Assembly: GCA_041615815.1 (NCBI GenBank)
Contig: JBFJCP010000055.1
Coordinates: 1 to 12,121 of the forward strand
Source of the DNA: Gemmatimonadales bacterium
Lineage (GTDB): Bacteria; Gemmatimonadota; Gemmatimonadetes; Gemmatimonadales; GWC2-71-9
Direction of reading: 5' to 3'
DNA length: 12,121 nt
This document shows, one piece after another, positions 753-8,622 of the stretch (the stretch's first letter is position 1; every line of letters starts with the position of its first letter). The notes under the pieces are model-generated. The model made no database searches and was not told the DNA's origin. It saw only the letters and a program-made list of their open reading frames with translations. A program made the translations under genes and the position numbers.

Positions 753-1214
753 CTACGCCTCCTCCACCTCCGCCGTCCACGCGACCTCGACCGCCCCGCG
801 CAGCGTTTCGGCTGTGGGACACTTGGACTGATGCTTGGCCAACGCGCGATCCACCGTTTCGCGCGTGCCCCTGGGGATCCACAGGCGATAGTGAATCCGT
901 ATCTGCGTGAGCACCGGCACGCCGTCCCGTATCTCGTTGATGCCACGGACCTCGGCGCGAATGGCATCCGGCTCAAGCGTGATCCCGCGCACCTCCAGTG
1001 CGCCGTTGAGAGTGCCAAGCATTCAGCCGCCGGTGGCAGCAACCACGTAGTCCACGGGTAAGGGGATATCCGGCTCTCGGACGAGCTTGTAGTGCTGTTT
1101 GATGGGACCATGTACCCCGAACTCCACCGCCACACCGGCGTCGAGGTGGGCCCGGCGGTGCACACCCTTCACCTTCTCGATGGATGCCGTCGACACGTAG
1201 AGTGGCTCAGCCAT
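753..1214 (-). CDS. OsmC/Ohr-family protein, predicted selenoprotein (153 aa; Sec at TGA 1023-1025)
   Basis: ORFs 1023..1250 and 753..1022 are in the same frame and separated only by TGA (GGC GGC TGA ATG CTT). The joined protein reads ...PVDYVVAATGG-U-MLGTLNGAL...ALAKHQSKCPTAETL.... TGA occupies the first OsmC active-site Cys position and KCP supplies the second. ATG 1214 has AGGAGG upstream (1227-1232) and overlaps the symporter stop. A SECIS-like hairpin follows the TGA. Confidence 0.85.
972..1010 (-). promoter_or_regulatory. Putative bacterial SECIS element
   Basis: On the minus strand, GCGCAC-TGGAG-GTGCGC (1003..987) forms a perfect 6-bp stem. Its loop starts after 25 nt downstream of the UGA and has G as its second base. 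An outer CTCAA/TTGAG pairing is possible (1010-1006 with 976-972). Confidence 0.65.
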
Positions 1215-2679
1215 GACGCGCCAATACCTCCTGTGGAGGGCCTGTCTCACTCCGGGCGCGCCCGTGCACGAGCGTCACACCCACCAACACGAGCGAGCTC
1301 ACGACCAATATAGGAATCAACGGTAAGAAGCCGAACGTCAATCTTGGCGGGATGATCTCGTAGTGGTAGCCGAAGAGCAGGATCTGGCCCACGAGGATGG
1401 ATGCAATGCACGCTCCCGCCCCGACACGACGCCAGTAAAGCACCGCGACGGTGGTGGGAAAGAGAATGGCCAGTCCGGTAAATGCCTCGGTGGCGATAGC
1501 GAAGATGGTAGCGGGAGGCTGATACGCGATGGCCAACCCCACCACGGACAGCAAGACCACGAGGGCGCGTCCCAACTTCACCTGGAACTCGATGGACGCG
1601 TGCGGGTTCACGAACCCGAGATAGAGGTCCCGAGTGAGCATCGAGCTGAGCGCGAGGAGCTGCGAATCCATCGTGGACATGAACGCCGCCAGGGCACCGA
1701 CCATCACCAGCGCCGCAAGCCACGCGGGCGCGTGCGCCGCCAACATCATGGGGAGAATCCGGTCCGACTCGTTTCCTTCTAGTCCTGGAAACGTCAAGTG
1801 CCCCAGGACGCCGATGATCACAGGACCAATGAACAGTATGGCGGTCACGACGGGATAGAGGGTCGCTGCCACCCGTAGCGACCGCGCCGTGTCTGGAATA
1901 AAAAACCGCATGAACACCTGCGGGAACATCGGCACCGCCAGCGCGAACAGCAACATGAAGCTGAACCATCGCCTCGGCGTGAAAAAACCTCCTCCGCCCT
2001 CGCGGGTGAACAGCGCTGGCTGAAGCTCCCGGACGCTGGCATTGGCCGACCCCAACCCTCCCAACGCTTGGCCGATATACGCCACTACCAGCACGATGAG
2101 CACGAACATCAGGATGCCCTGGAATACGTCCGTGATCGCCACGCTCCGCATGCCGCCCAGAAACACGTAGGCCACCATGAAGGCGGTGAGTAGCACGGCG
2201 CCCCAGAAGTAAGGAATGGTCTCGCCCGTCAGCTGCGACAGGAGATACCCTGCGCCGATGGGTTGGAGCGCCAGATAGGGGATCGTGAAGAACACCATGA
2301 CCGCAAGGAAAACCACTTGCAGCGGCTTGCTCCGCAAACGATCGCCGATCAGCTCCGGCGGGGTGATGTACCCAGCCGCCTTCCCCAACCGCCAGGCCTT
2401 GTAGCCGATGAAGAAGAACGGCAGCGCCACGAGCGCCGTTCCGAACGACAGGATGCCGTAGTAGCCGTAGCCGATACGATACCCCGCCCCCGCAAACCCG
2501 AGGAAGAAGAACGCACTGAAGTTGGTGGCAATGAGCGTGAAGAAGAGAACGAACGCTCCGACGCCGCGGTTGGCCAGGAAGAAGTCGTCCGGTGTGTTCT
2601 TCCGATAGTGGTATCCCGCGATCCCGATGCCGACGGTGATCACGAGATAGAGCCCGACGATCAGATAGGGGAGCGTCAC
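1207..2679 (-). CDS. Sodium:solute symporter (SSS, PanF/PutP/ActP-like) family protein (490 aa)
   Basis: About 13 hydrophobic segments. SSS motifs: DDFFLANRGVG, ATNFSAFFFLGFAGAGY, YVFLGGMRSVAITDVFQG, AAFMSTMDSQLL. The GTG start overlaps the upstream TGA (GTGA). Substrate cannot be determined. Confidence 0.93.
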   Translation of the reverse strand: MTLPYLIVGLYLVITVGIGIAGYHYRKNTPDDFFLANRGVGAFVLFFTLIATNFSAFFFLGFAGAGYRIGYGYYGILSFGTALVALPFFFIGYKAWRLGKAAGYITPPELIGDRLRSKPLQVVFLAVMVFFTIPYLALQPIGAGYLLSQLTGETIPYFWGAVLLTAFMVAYVFLGGMRSVAITDVFQGILMFVLIVLVVAYIGQALGGLGSANASVRELQPALFTREGGGGFFTPRRWFSFMLLFALAVPMFPQVFMRFFIPDTARSLRVAATLYPVVTAILFIGPVIIGVLGHLTFPGLEGNESDRILPMMLAAHAPAWLAALVMVGALAAFMSTMDSQLLALSSMLTRDLYLGFVNPHASIEFQVKLGRALVVLLSVVGLAIAYQPPATIFAIATEAFTGLAILFPTTVAVLYWRRVGAGACIASILVGQILLFGYHYEIIPPRLTFGFLPLIPILVVSSLVLVGVTLVHGRARSETGPPQEVLARHG

Positions 2680-2915
2680 GGCGCTTTGTCGTCGGGCTCA
2701 TCATCCGGTTCCTCGGACCAGTGCCGCCGGCCGAAGAAGTGGACCGCCACCGCCAGCCCCAACTGCAGGATCACGAAGTAGTAGATCCACTGCGGAAGAT
2801 GCAACGGACCAACCTTCACGGGCCCGTCCCACCACCAGAAGTCGAGGGAGAGCAGGAATAGCGCGGCGAACGCGAGGGTCCACCGCATCATGGATGCGGT
2901 GTCGCGCCGGTTCAT
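2676..2915 (-). CDS. Small two-TM membrane protein accompanying the SSS transporter (DUF3311/DUF997-like, ~79 aa)
   Basis: Two hydrophobic helices flank LSLDFWWW...LPQWIYY, with an acidic tail. It lies directly upstream of an SSS gene, where such proteins are typical. ATG 2915 overlaps the oxidase stop (ATGA). Alternative starts are at 2891 and 2888. Confidence 0.75.
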   Translation of the reverse strand: MNRRDTASMMRWTLAFAALFLLSLDFWWWDGPVKVGPLHLPQWIYYFVILQLGLAVAVHFFGRRHWSEEPDDEPDDKAP

Positions 2916-3985
2916 CTCCTTACGCGCTCCTTGGTGACCTCCCGCACGCTCGTGCATCCGAGGAGCGCAAGCGCTAGCTCCAGCTCGGCCTTGAGCAAAT
3001 CCAGCACTGTGGCAACCCCAGCCTCGCCGGCGGCGGCGAGACCCCAGAGGTAGGGCCGGCCGATGAGAACCCCGCGGGCGCCGAGAGCCAGCGCCTTCAC
3101 CACGTCGGTCCCGCGCCGCACCCCGCTGTCCAGCAGCACCTCCGCCCGCCCGGCGACGGCCTCGACCACCTCCTCGAGCACATCGATGGTGGCTGGCGCA
3201 CCATCCAGTTGCCGCCCGCCATGGTTCGAGACCACGACCCCGGCGGCCCCGTAATCGGGAGCCAACCGGGCATCTTCATCGGTCAGGATTCCCTTGATCA
3301 GCACCGGCAGATCGGTGATGGAGCAAATCCAGTCGATGTCCCTCCAGGTCAGGGACTCGACCAGATAGTCGCTCACGAATTTCTCGATCGCCGATCCCTG
3401 CTGGGCATCGGGCACGGCGGAGAGATTCAGCCTGTCCTTGAAGTTTCGTGGCATGGCCTCTCCCGGCACGGCCGCATGGTTGCGGATGTCCTTTTCCCGG
3501 CGCCCCACGCGCGGGACATCCACGGTGATGCACAGAGCCGTATAGCCGGCTTCCTTTGCTCGCTGGATGAGGCTTTGGGTCAACCCTCGATCCCGCGAGC
3601 AGTACAGCTGGAACCACCGAGTTCCGCCCGCCTCGGCGATTTCCTCCATGCTGGCCGAGGTAAAGGTACTGGCGATCATGACGACGCCCGCCCGCGCTGC
3701 CGCCCGGACCGTGGCGATTTCGGCATCGGGGTGAACCATCCGCTGAAAGGCCGCCGGCGCCAACAGGACGGGCATGGTCAAGCCGTGACCGAGCACCTTT
3801 GTGCTGGTGCTGACCTTGGCCACGTCCACCAGCGTGCGGGGCCGCAGTTTGATTCGCTGGAACGCGGCGCGGTTCTCCCGCAGGGTGACCTCGTCGCCGG
3901 CACCGCCAGACACGTAGTCGAAGGTGTCAGCGGGCAAGCGTTCCCGGGCGAGGGGTTCGAACTCTGCGATGTTGACCGGCTGCAT
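2912..3985 (-). CDS. FMN-dependent alpha-hydroxy acid oxidase/dehydrogenase (glycolate oxidase/L-lactate dehydrogenase/hydroxymandelate oxidase family, 357 aa)
   Basis: Motifs FDYVSGGAGDE, WFQLY, TVDVP..GRRE.D, VLIKGI, SNHGGRQLD, DSGVRRGTDVVKALALGA and GRPYLWGL. Start moved to ATG 3985 (MQPVNIAEF), which has AGGAG upstream. Confidence 0.95.
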   Translation of the reverse strand: MQPVNIAEFEPLARERLPADTFDYVSGGAGDEVTLRENRAAFQRIKLRPRTLVDVAKVSTSTKVLGHGLTMPVLLAPAAFQRMVHPDAEIATVRAAARAGVVMIASTFTSASMEEIAEAGGTRWFQLYCSRDRGLTQSLIQRAKEAGYTALCITVDVPRVGRREKDIRNHAAVPGEAMPRNFKDRLNLSAVPDAQQGSAIEKFVSDYLVESLTWRDIDWICSITDLPVLIKGILTDEDARLAPDYGAAGVVVSNHGGRQLDGAPATIDVLEEVVEAVAGRAEVLLDSGVRRGTDVVKALALGARGVLIGRPYLWGLAAAGEAGVATVLDLLKAELELALALLGCTSVREVTKERVRR

Positions 3986-4142
3986 AGGCGCTCCTGGGAG
4001 GGGGGGTCGGCGGGGTGGAAATTGAGGGGTTGGCCACGGAATCGCCACGGGCCGTGACCGGATGAAATTGTGCGCCATGACCCCCTTCCCTTGTTGGCCG
4101 ATGCGATAGATTCCGGCGTCTTGGACCGGAGCCGTCCCGTTG

Positions 4143-5429
4143 ATGACCGAGGTTCACACCCCATCCCGACACCAGATCAGCGCCGAACAGGCGTTCAAGT
4201 TCAACGTGATGATGCAGCGGGTCCTCGCGGCCAACACCTTTTATAAGGCGCGCTGCACCGTAGCGGGCTTCACCGCAGACCATCCACCCACCCTCGAAGA
4301 GCTCGAGCAGATTCCCTTCACTCGCAAGGCTGAACTGGTCGAGGATCAAGGCCGGTATCCCCCCTACGGGACCAACCTCACGTTTCCCGAGAGCGAATAC
4401 ACGCGGCTGCATCTGACGTCCGGCACGAGTGGCCATCCGCTCAGGTGGTTGGACACGGCCGAGAGCTGGCAGTGGTGGCTGGAGTGCTGGAAGGAGGTGT
4501 ACCGATCGGCGGGTGTCACCGATCGCGACCGAGTCTTCGTGGCGTTCTCGTTTGGGCCCTTCATCGGATTCTGGACGGCGTTCGAAGCCGGGCAGCTGCT
4601 GGGCCCCATGATGTTGGCCGGGGGCGGGCTCAGCACCAAGCAACGGGTGGAGACCATCATGGAGCACGGCGCGACCGTCGTCGTGTGCACGCCCACCTAC
4701 GCGTTGCGCATGGCCGAGGTGGCCCGTCAGGACCATATCGACCTGATGGACAGCGCCGTGCGTCTCACCATTCACGCCGGTGAGCCCGGGGCGAGCGTTC
4801 CCAACGTGCGGTCGCGGATCGAACAGGCGTGGGGGGCCCGCTGCGTCGACCACGCCGGCGCCACAGAGGTGGGCGCGTGGGGGTTTGGGTGCGGGATCGA
4901 CAACACGATGCACATCAACGAGTTGGAATTCATTGCCGAGGTGATCGATCCCGACACCGGGAAGCCCGCACCAGTCATCGATGGCGTGGAGCGCGGCGAG
5001 TTGGTGCTCACCAATCTGGGCCGCATTGGGAGCCCGGTCATCCGATACCGCACCGGGGATCTCGTGGAAAAAGTCGCCGGAGGCTGTGCCTGCGGCCGCG
5101 AGTTGGTGGCGCTGCGGGGTGGGGTGCTCGGACGCATCGACGATATGGTGATCGTGCGAGGGATCAACGTGTTCCCATCTGCCATCGAGAACATCGTGCG
5201 GGAGTTCGGCGACATCACCGAGTTCGAGATGGTGGTGGAGCGCAAGCAGGAGATGGCCGAGCTTCTCGTGAAGATCGAGATCGCGGATACCGCCAAGAGT
5301 GCCGTGCATGAGGCGTTGGCCGAGCGAATCTATCGCCGGCTCAATCTGCGACCCGCGGTCGAGGTCGTGGATGAGGGGAGTCTGCCACGCTACGAGCTCA
5401 AGGCGCAGCGCTTCAGAAAGAACCTTTGA
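4143..5429 (+). CDS. Phenylacetate-CoA ligase (PaaK)-family adenylate-forming enzyme, copy 1
   Basis: Motifs IPFTRK, P-loop TSGTSG, AGEPG, GATEVG, ELVLTNL, IRYRTGD, GRIDDMVIVRGINVFPS and C-terminal LPRYELKAQRF. Start is ATG 4143 or TTG 4140. Confidence 0.92.
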   Translation: MTEVHTPSRHQISAEQAFKFNVMMQRVLAANTFYKARCTVAGFTADHPPTLEELEQIPFTRKAELVEDQGRYPPYGTNLTFPESEYTRLHLTSGTSGHPLRWLDTAESWQWWLECWKEVYRSAGVTDRDRVFVAFSFGPFIGFWTAFEAGQLLGPMMLAGGGLSTKQRVETIMEHGATVVVCTPTYALRMAEVARQDHIDLMDSAVRLTIHAGEPGASVPNVRSRIEQAWGARCVDHAGATEVGAWGFGCGIDNTMHINELEFIAEVIDPDTGKPAPVIDGVERGELVLTNLGRIGSPVIRYRTGDLVEKVAGGCACGRELVALRGGVLGRIDDMVIVRGINVFPSAIENIVREFGDITEFEMVVERKQEMAELLVKIEIADTAKSAVHEALAERIYRRLNLRPAVEVVDEGSLPRYELKAQRFRKNL

Positions 5430-5440
5430 GGGAATTGGCC

Positions 5441-5564
5441 GTTGTCAGTTACCCGCCGCCTGTCATCCGTCAAGTTCAAGTTGAGGTCTGGCAACGAGAG
5501 GTCTAGCTTGCCACAGATCCGTAATGTTTATGATTCGGCCTGACGGCAACGGGTAACTGACAAC
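5441..5564. repeat. 124-bp element bounded by a perfect 15-bp inverted repeat between convergent genes
   Basis: GTTGTCAGTTACCCG (5441-5455) is the reverse complement of CGGGTAACTGACAAC (5550-5564). Pairing extends imperfectly inward (GCCTGTCA / TGACGGC). There is an inner TGGCAA (5489-5494) / TTGCCA (5508-5513) pair. Confidence 0.85.
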
Positions 5565-5578
5565 AACGAGATTGCTTG

Positions 5579-6649
5579 TTAGTGCGAGCCCGCTCCGGCG
5601 GGATCGCGGGCCGGCGTCTGGCTTGGCTGACTTCGAGCCACAGGACGCCCAATGGCGTCACCGATGACGCTTACATCATCACAGACCGATCGGAACTCCT
5701 CGAGGGACAACGTCTGAAATCCGTCGGACCACGCCCGATCGGGATCATAATGCACTTCAATAATCAGGCCATCCGCACCGGCCGCCACGGCAGCTCGACT
5801 CACTGCCTTTACCAAACTACGCTTGCCCGTGGCGTGACTGGGATCCACGATCACGGGCAAATGTGAGAGTTCCTTCAAGACTGGGACGGCATTGATGTCG
5901 AGACTGTTGCGTGTGTACGTCTCGAACGTGCGAATGCCGCGCTCGCACAGCAACACATTGCCGTTCCCGTGCGAGAGGATGTACTCGGCGCTCAGCAAGA
6001 ACTCCTCGATGGTAGACATCATGCCGCGCTTCAGGAGCACCGGCATGCCCGTCTCACCAGCGGCGTGCAGCAGCATGTAGTTCTGCATGTTGCGGGTGCC
6101 GATCTGCAGCACGTCCGCGTACTTGGCCACGAGCGGCACGTGCTCCGACGAGAGGACCTCCGTCACGATGGGAAGGCCGGTCTCCTCCCGCGCTGCCGCC
6201 AAAATCTTGAGCCCCTCTTCAGCGAGTCCTTGGAAGCTGTATGGCGAGGAGCGTGGCTTGAACGCGCCACCGCGAAATAGCGTAGCCCCGGCCTTCTTGG
6301 CCCCTTTGGCGATCTTGATCACCGATTCCGGTGTCTCCACCGAGCACGGGCCAGCCATGATCACTAGCTCCGTACCCCCGATCACCCGACCACGAACGTC
6401 TACGGTGCTGGGCTCCGAGCGAAACTCTTTGCTCGCCAGCCGGAACGGCCGGCTCATGGGGCGGACTTGCTCCACGCCACGGAGCATCGTGAGCACGTTG
6501 GGGTTCAGTCCCTTCACGTCGCCCGTGAGGCCGATCAGCGTGTGGCCGTTCTGCAACGAGATGTGGGTCTTCAGACCCAGACTCCGTGCACGGCGAACGA
6601 CGTAATCGGTGTCGCGCTCGCTGGCGCCCGGTTTCATGACAATGACCAT
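5579..6649 (-). CDS. aroF: 3-deoxy-7-phosphoheptulonate (DAHP) synthase, class I-beta with N-terminal ACT-like domain (356 aa)
   Basis: Regulatory N-terminus begins MVIVMKPGA. Motifs [57 protein letters not shown] and SDG.Q. SD-like GGAG upstream. Confidence 0.96.
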
Positions 6650-6660
6650 GCTCCGCTCCC

Positions 6661-8016
6661 TTACCCGACCACCGGCCCGCGGTGATCCGTAAACCGTTTG
6701 GCCTTGAGATCGAACCGTGGCAACGTGCCGAACGGAACCGGGGTCACCACCGCACGGATGCCGATACCGGCGCGAATCTCTTTGGCCACGGCGGCGGCAA
6801 CGTCATCGGCGCTGCCGTTTCGGACCTCGAGACGCACTTCCATGTCGTCCAGTTCTTTCTTGCGGTACACGTCGACCGCGAACTCACCCACTTCGGGGAA
6901 CCGCCGTACAATGTTCTCGATGGCGCTGGGGAAGACGTTCACGCCACGGACGATGACCACGTCGTCGATCCGTCCGATCACGCCACCCTCGAGCTGGATG
7001 TAGCTGCGGCCGCATTCGCACGGCTCAGACGCGAGACGTCCACGATCGCCCGTGCGGTACCGAATGATGGGCATCCCGAGTCGTCCGAGGTTGGTCATGA
7101 CCAGCTCGCCCTCGGTGGAAGGCTGGAGCGTGAGCGGGTCGATCACCTCACAGATGAACTCGCCCTCGTTCACGTGGACGCCACCCTGGGCCTGGCACTC
7201 GAACCCCCACGCGCCCACTTCGGTGGCACCAGCATGGTCGTAGCACCGTGCGCCCCAGGCGTGCTCGATTCGCTCCTTGGTGCCGGAGACGCTGGCGCCG
7301 GGCTCTCCGGCCTGGATGGTGATGTTGACGCTGGAGTTGGCCAGGTCGATGCCCTCCTGCTCCGCCACTTCCGTAAGATGCAAGGCGTAGGTGGGCGTGC
7401 AGACGAGGACCGAGATGTCGTGGTCGAGGATCGCCTTGGCCCGCTGGTAACTGGACATGCCACCACCCGGCACGGCCAGCGCGCCAATGAGCTGCGCACC
7501 GTGATAGCCGCTCCAGAATCCGATGAACGGACCGAAGGAGAAGGCAAAGAAGATCCGATCCCGTTCCGTGACTCCCGCCGCGCGATACACGCTGGCCCAG
7601 CAGCGAGCCCACCAGTTCCAGCTGTCTTCGGTATCCAGCCACCGGAGCGGCTCACCGGTGGTGCCCGACGTCTGGTGGATGCGGGTGTATTTGTCGCGCG
7701 GGAACGTGAGGTTCGTCCCATAGGGCGGCGTCTCCGCCTGATCCGCCGAGAGATCCCGTTTCGTGGTGAACGGCAGCTTCCGGAGGTCTTCCATGGTCTT
7801 GAGCTCCGCCGGCGACCGTAGCCCAGCTCCCATCAGCTTCTTCTTGTAAAAGGAATTGGAAGCCAGGACGGGCCCCAGGATGAGCTGCAGCTTCTTCAAT
7901 TGAATCTGTTGCAGCGCGTCGCGGCCCAGCGTTTCGACGAACGGGTCGAGGTAACTCGTATCCAGGGGGCCGCGCAGCAGGTTGCTGGGGCCGATCTCGG
8001 TCAGGGTGGCGATCAC
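6661..8016 (-). CDS. Phenylacetate-CoA ligase (PaaK)-family adenylate-forming enzyme, copy 2 (451 aa)
   Basis: Motifs [51 protein letters not shown] and [11 protein letters not shown]. The GTG start is preceded by GAGGTG. Confidence 0.92.
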
Positions 8017-8025
8017 GTTTTCACC

Positions 8026-8622
8026 TCAATGATGTGACGGCAGTCGATCGATGTCGCAGGGGAACTTCTCGTTGATCAGGGCGATGGGCTTGCCCTGATG
8101 AATGATCCGATACGCGCGGCTCACGAACTCTCCCGGGACACGGCGCCTGACGGCATCAGGCAGCTCGGCCGCGTGCTCCCGGCCGTACCACATGATCTCT
8201 CGCCGAGTCTCCATGGCCGTGTCATTCAAGATCCGTCCAATACCCTCTCCTTGTATGTCCAGTCTGGCGCGGAGCTCGGACGGGAACCTGTCCAGTACGA
8301 CGAGGGAGACGGCGTAGACGTACGGGGTACGGCTATACTTGCCCTGAATCAGCACTTGGCGGACAGCGACTTGAGTCCCGGCCGCCGCGTCCAGCCACGG
8401 ATGATCCGCATCCAACGGCTGGGTGTGCTGAGCGAGCCGCTCGATGTGCATGGGCTCCATGACGAAGGCCTCGATGAATTTGGTCACTGTCCCGTCGATG
8501 ACGAGCAGCGCCCGTTGAAACGGGGTGAGGACCCGGAAGTTCACGGCACCCAGGTCCGCCGGCCGCTCGGGGTCAGCCCGGAGCAGCGGCGCCAGCGGAT
8601 CGAAGCCATTGATGGTGCTCAT
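8026..8622 (-). CDS. Chorismate pyruvate-lyase-like protein (DUF98/Rv2949c/UbiC-like fold, 198 aa)
   Basis: Motifs RALLVIDGTVTKFIE, VRQVLI, YAVSLV, GIGRIL...ETRRE and SRAYRI...PIALINEKFP follow the chorismate-lyase pattern. Start moved to ATG 8622, which has GGAGG upstream. It is co-oriented with a DAHP synthase. Confidence 0.8.
   Translation of the reverse strand: MSTINGFDPLAPLLRADPERPADLGAVNFRVLTPFQRALLVIDGTVTKFIEAFVMEPMHIERLAQHTQPLDADHPWLDAAAGTQVAVRQVLIQGKYSRTPYVYAVSLVVLDRFPSELRARLDIQGEGIGRILNDTAMETRREIMWYGREHAAELPDAVRRRVPGEFVSRAYRIIHQGKPIALINEKFPCDIDRLPSHH

Follow-up and report, generated by a model that had tools for sequence, protein, structure and literature searches.

Does a reading frame interrupted by a single TGA in a Gemmatimonadales contig represent one intact gene whose TGA is read as selenocysteine (Sec)? 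The window, the whole 12,121-nt stretch of DNA analyzed here (contig JBFJCP010000055.1, assembly GCA_041615815.1), contains such a frame at 753–1214, and a first-pass annotation made from the letters alone had taken it for a hidden selenoprotein related to the OsmC/Ohr peroxidases. To answer this question, we examined the frame itself, the corresponding codon in homologs, the RNA downstream of the UGA, and the distribution of the Sec machinery.

A single TGA joins two halves of an OsmC-fold gene

The features of the locus are as follows:

753..1214, minus strand: predicted selenoprotein gene, 153 aa, OsmC/Ohr fold (PF02566); ATG at 1214, TAG at 755–753
1023..1025, minus strand: in-frame TGA, codon 64, predicted selenocysteine, aligned with the first (peroxidatic) Cys column
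987..1003, minus strand: predicted bacterial SECIS hairpin; 6-bp stem pairing 1003–998 with 992–987, loop 997–993
819..821, minus strand: Cys132 (TGT), aligned with the second (resolving) Cys, in H-x-x-K-C-P-T-A
1226..1232, minus strand: Shine-Dalgarno-like AGGAGGT lying 11 nt ahead of the ATG, within the 3'-terminal part of the upstream gene
1207..2679, minus strand: upstream sodium:solute symporter gene (PF00474), overlapping the start of the OsmC-fold gene by 8 nt

The first-pass annotation had described two same-frame ORFs linked by a single TGA, a good Shine-Dalgarno sequence, an overlap with the upstream gene, a frame without other lesions, and a retained second cysteine (SKCP), and we found all of these on the minus strand, a strand it had not named. 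The frame runs for 153 codons from 1214 to 753, and its sole internal stop is the TGA at 1025–1023, in the context A-A-T-G-G-(TGA)-M-L-G-T-L; Cys132 lies in HQSKCPTA. ORF calling with translation table 11 cuts the frame into same-frame ORFs at 1023..1250 and 753..1022. The Pfam OsmC model nevertheless matches across the TGA junction, covering residues 50–146 with an E value of 1.4e-12 and a score of 48.4 bits, above the gathering cut-off of 27.5, and the structural model likewise has the OsmC fold. A plus-strand reading of 753–1214 revealed nothing, and a consensus scan detected neither a sigma-70 promoter nor, close to the 3' end of the gene, a terminator.

The TGA itself recurs in public records. 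Contigs from two public runs belonging to different studies (X2 and X6, of which X2 is possibly the source study of the assembly) span codon 64, and among the matches listed they carry TGA and no other letter there; the X2 record covers 981–1663 with 0 differences, and the X6 record covers 981–1173 with 3 differences, none of them at codon 64.

The TGA occupies a conserved cysteine column

A protein search with the joined frame returned 1503 matches, of which the best 120 were listed and examined. Thirty of these are full-length (at least 120 aa), and in all 30, column 64 is Cys and 132–133 is C-P. The other 90 of the best 120 are 89–98 aa long and begin exactly with the Met after the TGA; they are C-terminal halves stored as separate records. 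The first-pass annotation had predicted that standard gene callers would split or truncate this gene, and recognizing the joined gene puts right an error that is systematic in annotation. When representatives at 50% identity were searched with a profile, the same halves came up together with a wider family, with Cys at column 64 in 59 of the 80 rows of at least 125 aa; a C in a protein record may in some cases represent U.

We then read the homologous loci as DNA. The codon is TGA in 118 of 121 loci and TGC in 3 (the only Cys-form genes represented as DNA), and never Trp, TAA, or TAG; the window's own locus and near-duplicates are counted in this set, 114 members of which are distinct, and the metagenome scan that contributed to it kept 80 of 113. 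Each TGA gene among the 121 has exactly one stop, with no second stop or other lesion. The Pfam match across the junction, together with this placement of the TGA in one column, argues that the joined frame is not a product of chance.

The same pattern extends over two phyla. In Gemmatimonadota, we found 135 matches in 85 of 301 genomes, and in Acidobacteriota, 45 matches in 41 of 251 genomes, every one with a single TGA (135/135 and 45/45), the column position having been verified in 30 of the 135 and 30 of the 45 loci, respectively; two unpublished genomes with selA and without the gene (G174 and G345) count in the denominators only. The matches form two subclades, with approximately 60–77% and 34–45% identity to the 153-aa protein, frequently both within one genome. 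Thus, in the two comparisons that the first-pass annotation had proposed, the in-frame UGA pairs with a conserved Cys in homologs, not Trp, and it is conserved in other Sec-using organisms, as a single TGA in 126 carrier genomes.

A co-varying hairpin follows the UGA

According to PMC1088965, what bacterial SECIS elements have in common is a G in a small apical loop just 3' of the UGA. The predicted hairpin here has this form, with conserved G996 and G995 in its loop, and spans +20 to +36 after the UGA (stem +20..+25 with +31..+36). Six of six stem positions are paired in all 107 distinct near-subclade TGA genes, and across 89 distinct 45-nt windows, 534 of 534 stem cells are paired, including 36 double changes (GC/CG 9, CG/UA or GU 5, and AU/GC 22). 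None of 500 shuffles scored as high and slid controls reached 7.5–64%, a comparison in which the structure is favored over the slid control because it was derived from the same sequences. RNAalifold, unprompted, predicted the identical stem.

Codon usage in the hairpin is also constrained. Leu73 is CTG in 106 of 107 TGA genes, against 31–64% CTG in other Leu columns, and Ala72 is GCA in 79 of 102, against 2–18% in other Ala columns; this collapse of synonymous freedom is confined to the hairpin region. In all three TGC genes, Leu73 is CTC, which removes the loop G. Some double changes shift amino acids jointly, with Ala72/Val75 becoming Ala/Ala, Val/Ala, or Gly/Ala, so that residues 71–76 offer a case of SECIS-forced amino-acid co-variation in which RNA and protein constraints overlap. 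In the distant subclade, both loop Gs are present in 24 of 24 genes and all six pairs in 18, the other 6 genes pairing just 3–5 of the six in the near-subclade register. A similar hairpin follows the TGA of the source genome's own selD.

The hairpin carries weight through its conservation rather than its stability, because single-sequence folding of the 60-nt region found no stability above shuffles (z 0.04) and, in the source genome, 1672 of 102404 TGA triplets (1.6%) are followed by a loosely defined hairpin. An exact-register count in the same genome (24 of 102457) was set aside as circular for the OsmC-fold gene.

The gene co-occurs with the selenocysteine machinery

In the source genome, we found selA (507 bits), selB (362.5), and selD (368.3), all above curated cut-offs, and a tRNA-Sec (71.6 bits, anticodon TCA), completing the selA, selB, selC, and selD set that the first-pass annotation had suggested looking for; selD itself contains one TGA. 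Among carriers in the same phylum, selA is present in 85 of 85 genomes (243 of 301 overall) and selB in 84 of 85; in Acidobacteriota, selA is present in 39 of 41 carriers (196 of 251 overall). Of all 126 carrier genomes, 124 have selA, and the remaining two (G399 and G540) have selB plus tRNA-Sec; a further exception, G279, combines selA and tRNA-Sec with a partial selB-like match. These counts come from hand cross-reading of the gene and sel tables. Fisher tests give p values of 5.5e-10 and 0.003, with a within-family product of 1.7e-4, all of which overstate the association because selA is present in the majority of genomes in either phylum and related genomes are not independent. As a separate observation, selA is abundant in the sampled genomes of both phyla, and with Sec machinery this widespread, their selenoproteomes may be generally under-annotated.

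Alternative readings of the interrupted frame

Could the UGA be a true stop within a conserved split gene, with an adjacent ATG restart and coupled polypeptides of 63 and 89 aa that assemble? In 105 of 118 loci, the TGA is directly followed by ATG, and the halves are stored as separate proteins in public collections, as this arrangement would predict. However, the codon after the TGA is CTN in the remaining 13 loci and in 19 of 24 distant-subclade genes, a Shine-Dalgarno-like word is absent before that ATG in 112 of 114, and the stop is always TGA, never TAA or TAG. Such a split would also delete a catalytic residue, cut the long helix at residues 53–75, and leave the co-varying hairpin and the tie to the sel genes unexplained, and we consider it highly improbable. 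Slightly more remote still is decoding of the UGA as Trp, Cys, or another residue through a code change or leaky readthrough, given that the sole TCA-anticodon tRNA found is tRNA-Sec, neighboring genes terminate at TGA, and homologs carry Cys, not Trp. The chance of a pseudogene or assembly error is negligible: the sequence does come from a metagenome assembly and TGA is one base from TGC and TGT, but the same TGA appears in contigs from two studies and in carrier genomes of two phyla, with no other lesion, and this cross-phylum conservation refutes the explanation. By contrast, the proposal of the first-pass annotation that the UGA is decoded as Sec is supported by the Cys/TGA pairing, the sel genes, the conservation of the TGA, and the co-varying hairpin, which it had not noted. 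From this comparative sequence evidence, we conclude with a probability of about 0.96 that 753–1214 is one intact gene in which codon 64 is read as selenocysteine. By analogy with established bacterial Sec recoding, SelB bound to the hairpin that closely follows the UGA would deliver Sec-tRNA(Sec), and the ribosome would insert selenocysteine at codon 64 and continue to the TAG at 753.

Predicted fold and function

The predicted structure, modeled with Cys for Sec, has a pLDDT of 89 and a pTM of 0.65. Foldseek placed OsmC and Ohr at the top of its matches (E 3.8e-9 and up) and also matched YhfA, at identities of 11–23%. U64 and C132 align with both Cys of T. thermophilus OsmC, and residues 53–75 form a long helix in the model. 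The column of the canonical catalytic Glu of OsmC/Ohr, which we take to be the first E of PEE, is occupied by Val54, followed by Asp55. In 31 of 31 sequences, His35, Asp55, and His128 do not vary, and Arg20 is nearly invariant; among 80 distant full-length members, D55 is kept in 71, H128 in 59, and H35 in 53.

The first-pass annotation had envisaged a peroxidase-type U...C redox pair. The pair stands, in that both positions align with the OsmC cysteines; the peroxidase activity is extrapolated from the fold, by which we judge the protein to be probably a peroxidase that cycles through a selenenylsulfide. In this cycle, Sec64 would take the place of the peroxidatic Cys and Cys132 would act as the resolving residue; a hydroperoxide would be reduced through a selenenic acid and then a Sec64–Cys132 selenenylsulfide, with re-reduction by lipoylated proteins or another dithiol, as in Ohr and OsmC. 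A weaker but serious contender, which rivals this function and not the Sec reading, is an OsmC/YhfA-fold thiol-disulfide oxidoreductase or an S/Se carrier. That the canonical Glu is out of register, that the candidate active-site residues His35, Asp55, and His128 are conserved (also in the majority of the distant members), that it shares so little identity with solved OsmC/Ohr structures, and that a long branch (SH-aLRT 96) divides it from other OsmC-fold proteins all speak for such a role, as does the description, in the sections of PMC8945050 consulted, of YhfA-type proteins without Arg and Glu as uncharacterized. Against it, both redox positions are in register with OsmC, Asp55 sits one residue from the Glu column and Arg20 is nearly invariant, so that equivalents of the canonical residues may exist, and the characterized members of the fold in those sections are peroxidases.

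Evolution of the family

In a quick tree with long outgroup branches, which we use as evidence of family separation alone, the family (64 rows) is separated from 10 other OsmC-fold rows with an SH-aLRT of 96. A tree of the near subclade, computed with the trait column masked and with two distant TGA genes as the root, has Cys forms nested at two or more points among the TGA forms. It covers 34 chosen rows, the tested group having been defined once the first tree had been inspected, and the placement of all Cys forms in a single clade is rejected (p-AU 5.6e-6). This favors repeated Sec-to-Cys change, with repeated gains as the less likely course. Cys-form proteins with Gly72/Ala75 (L027, L083, L102, and P0002–P0010) trace back to TGA genes that share this SECIS-compensated pair, which makes the pair a protein-level fossil of the hairpin.

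A broader scenario, which we put forward tentatively and consider somewhat more doubtful than not, is that of an unlisted, ancestrally Sec-using OsmC-fold family that arose separately from the OsmC-like selenoprotein already published. It would comprise two paralogous subclades in Gemmatimonadota and Acidobacteriota, often with two copies per genome, would have undergone repeated Sec-to-Cys reversions with SECIS decay, and would have a His/Asp/His active site that differs from the Arg/Glu of Ohr and OsmC, with its own chemistry or substrate. In addition, two YhfA-like OsmC-fold genes on another branch, L049:1472-1846 (G016) and L051:1501-1878 (G021), have one TGA at the first Cys column, score below the cut-off of the NCBIfam model NF041052 (47.8 and 44.9 bits), and have close paralogs with Cys in other relatives; they are possibly a third Sec-using OsmC-fold group.

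Genomic context

The gene ends an overlapping minus-strand run at 753–4078, likely an operon, that also comprises an FMN-dependent hydroxy-acid dehydrogenase (2912–4078), a 93-aa small membrane protein (2676–2957), and the symporter. A peroxidase would be in keeping with an H2O2-forming oxidase encoded upstream, and among the loci examined this link was not seen beyond the genus; the adjacency of the symporter is likewise local to this operon and, in the loci seen, conserved no further than the genus. No neighbor gene was universally conserved in the 75 of 77 cluster representatives scanned, where many neighbors are shadow ORFs. Divergent ctaA/ctaB/cox2 genes flank approximately 19–26 metagenome loci, pgeF lies upstream with rimP-nusA downstream in 7–12 loci, and other neighbors include DUF885, toxin-antitoxin genes, and, in 3 loci, msrB. 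Because these neighborhoods are clade-limited, we assign no functional partner.

Elsewhere in the window, an imperfect inverted repeat at 588–733 (arms 588–617 and 697–726, 70%; 18-nt core, 83%) sits between the convergent 3–581 gene and the OsmC-fold gene and may be a REP-like element or a bidirectional terminator. The 190-aa ORF at 9–581 begins with a signal-peptide-like stretch and matched nothing in Pfam or NCBIfam. A cluster at 4140–8622 contains two phenylacetate-CoA-ligase-like genes (4140–5429, plus strand, and 6661–8016, minus strand), a DAHP synthase (5579–6649, minus strand), and a chorismate pyruvate-lyase (Rv2949c-like, extending to 8026, minus strand), with weak similarity to BagE/BagF, and suggests a 4-hydroxybenzoate-type chorismate-derived pathway.

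Comparison with known systems

OsmC and Ohr are lipoyl-dependent 2-Cys peroxidases. OsmC from E. coli (1NYE/1QWI) and T. thermophilus (1UKK) and Ohr from P. aeruginosa (1N2F) share the fold and both redox positions with the protein described here, at 16–23% identity; it differs from them in having Sec in place of the peroxidatic Cys and Val at the Glu column, in lacking the VCPY motif, and in having conserved motifs of its own, G-V-H-G-P and L-P-V-D. YhfA (E. coli 1ML8) also shares the fold and the two Cys positions, with the canonical Glu similarly out of register, but its sequence is distant (profile E 0.048), and the YhfA-like proteins of relatives fall outside the family in the tree. Section 4.2 of PMC8945050 treats the activity of YhfA proteins as unproven.

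The published OsmC-like selenoprotein (COG1765/PF02566) belongs to the same fold family and likewise has a predicted Sec in the first Cys column, in the long helix, a retained second Cys, and a SECIS-like hairpin with a loop G downstream. The NCBIfam model NF041052 (OsmC_like_Se), which we take from its name to represent the Sargasso Sea family, scores the 153-aa protein at 23.9 bits against a cut-off of 95, and 0 of 41 relatives' genomes pass this cut-off. In the portions of the literature used here, OsmC-like selenoproteins were predicted in 2005 from 3 Sargasso Sea sequences (PMC1088965), 5 were counted in the GOS survey (PMC2398784), and one predicted entry with the motif UxxT is given (PMC9312934; PMC13188914 Table 1). 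Compared by eye with the excerpted published sequences, G-I-G-F-U-L-L-T and G-C-F-A-E correspond to G-G-U-M-L-G-T and K-C-P-T-A here, and in place of UxxT the family has UxxxT (U-M-L-G-T). The sub-cut-off score and the difference in both motifs indicate that this protein is of the same kind as the published OsmC-like selenoproteins yet on a separate branch.

The first-pass annotation had noted OsmC-like selenoproteins in surveys and supposed that this subfamily might be uncharacterized; the former have indeed been in print since 2005, and for the separate branch, a search of the literature on OsmC-like, Gemmatimonad, and novel selenoproteins found no paper, although it may be catalogued elsewhere. 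No entry for it appeared in the parts of deep-Sep (PMC12013277), BSepDB (PMC13326102), and PMC1976440 that were available, and Table 1 of a 2026 inventory (PMC13188914) lists no experimentally verified OsmC-fold selenoprotein. The branch reveals no new recoding mechanism; it extends the bacterial selenoproteome by a large subfamily in two phyla that are abundant and for the most part uncultured, and its natural Sec/Cys ortholog pairs (approximately 60% identity) offer a clean test of the role of Sec in a peroxidase scaffold outside the thioredoxin fold. Together, these comparisons place the gene among Sec-using OsmC-fold enzymes, a class that is already known, within a large branch in Gemmatimonadota and Acidobacteriota that is mis-annotated as halves.
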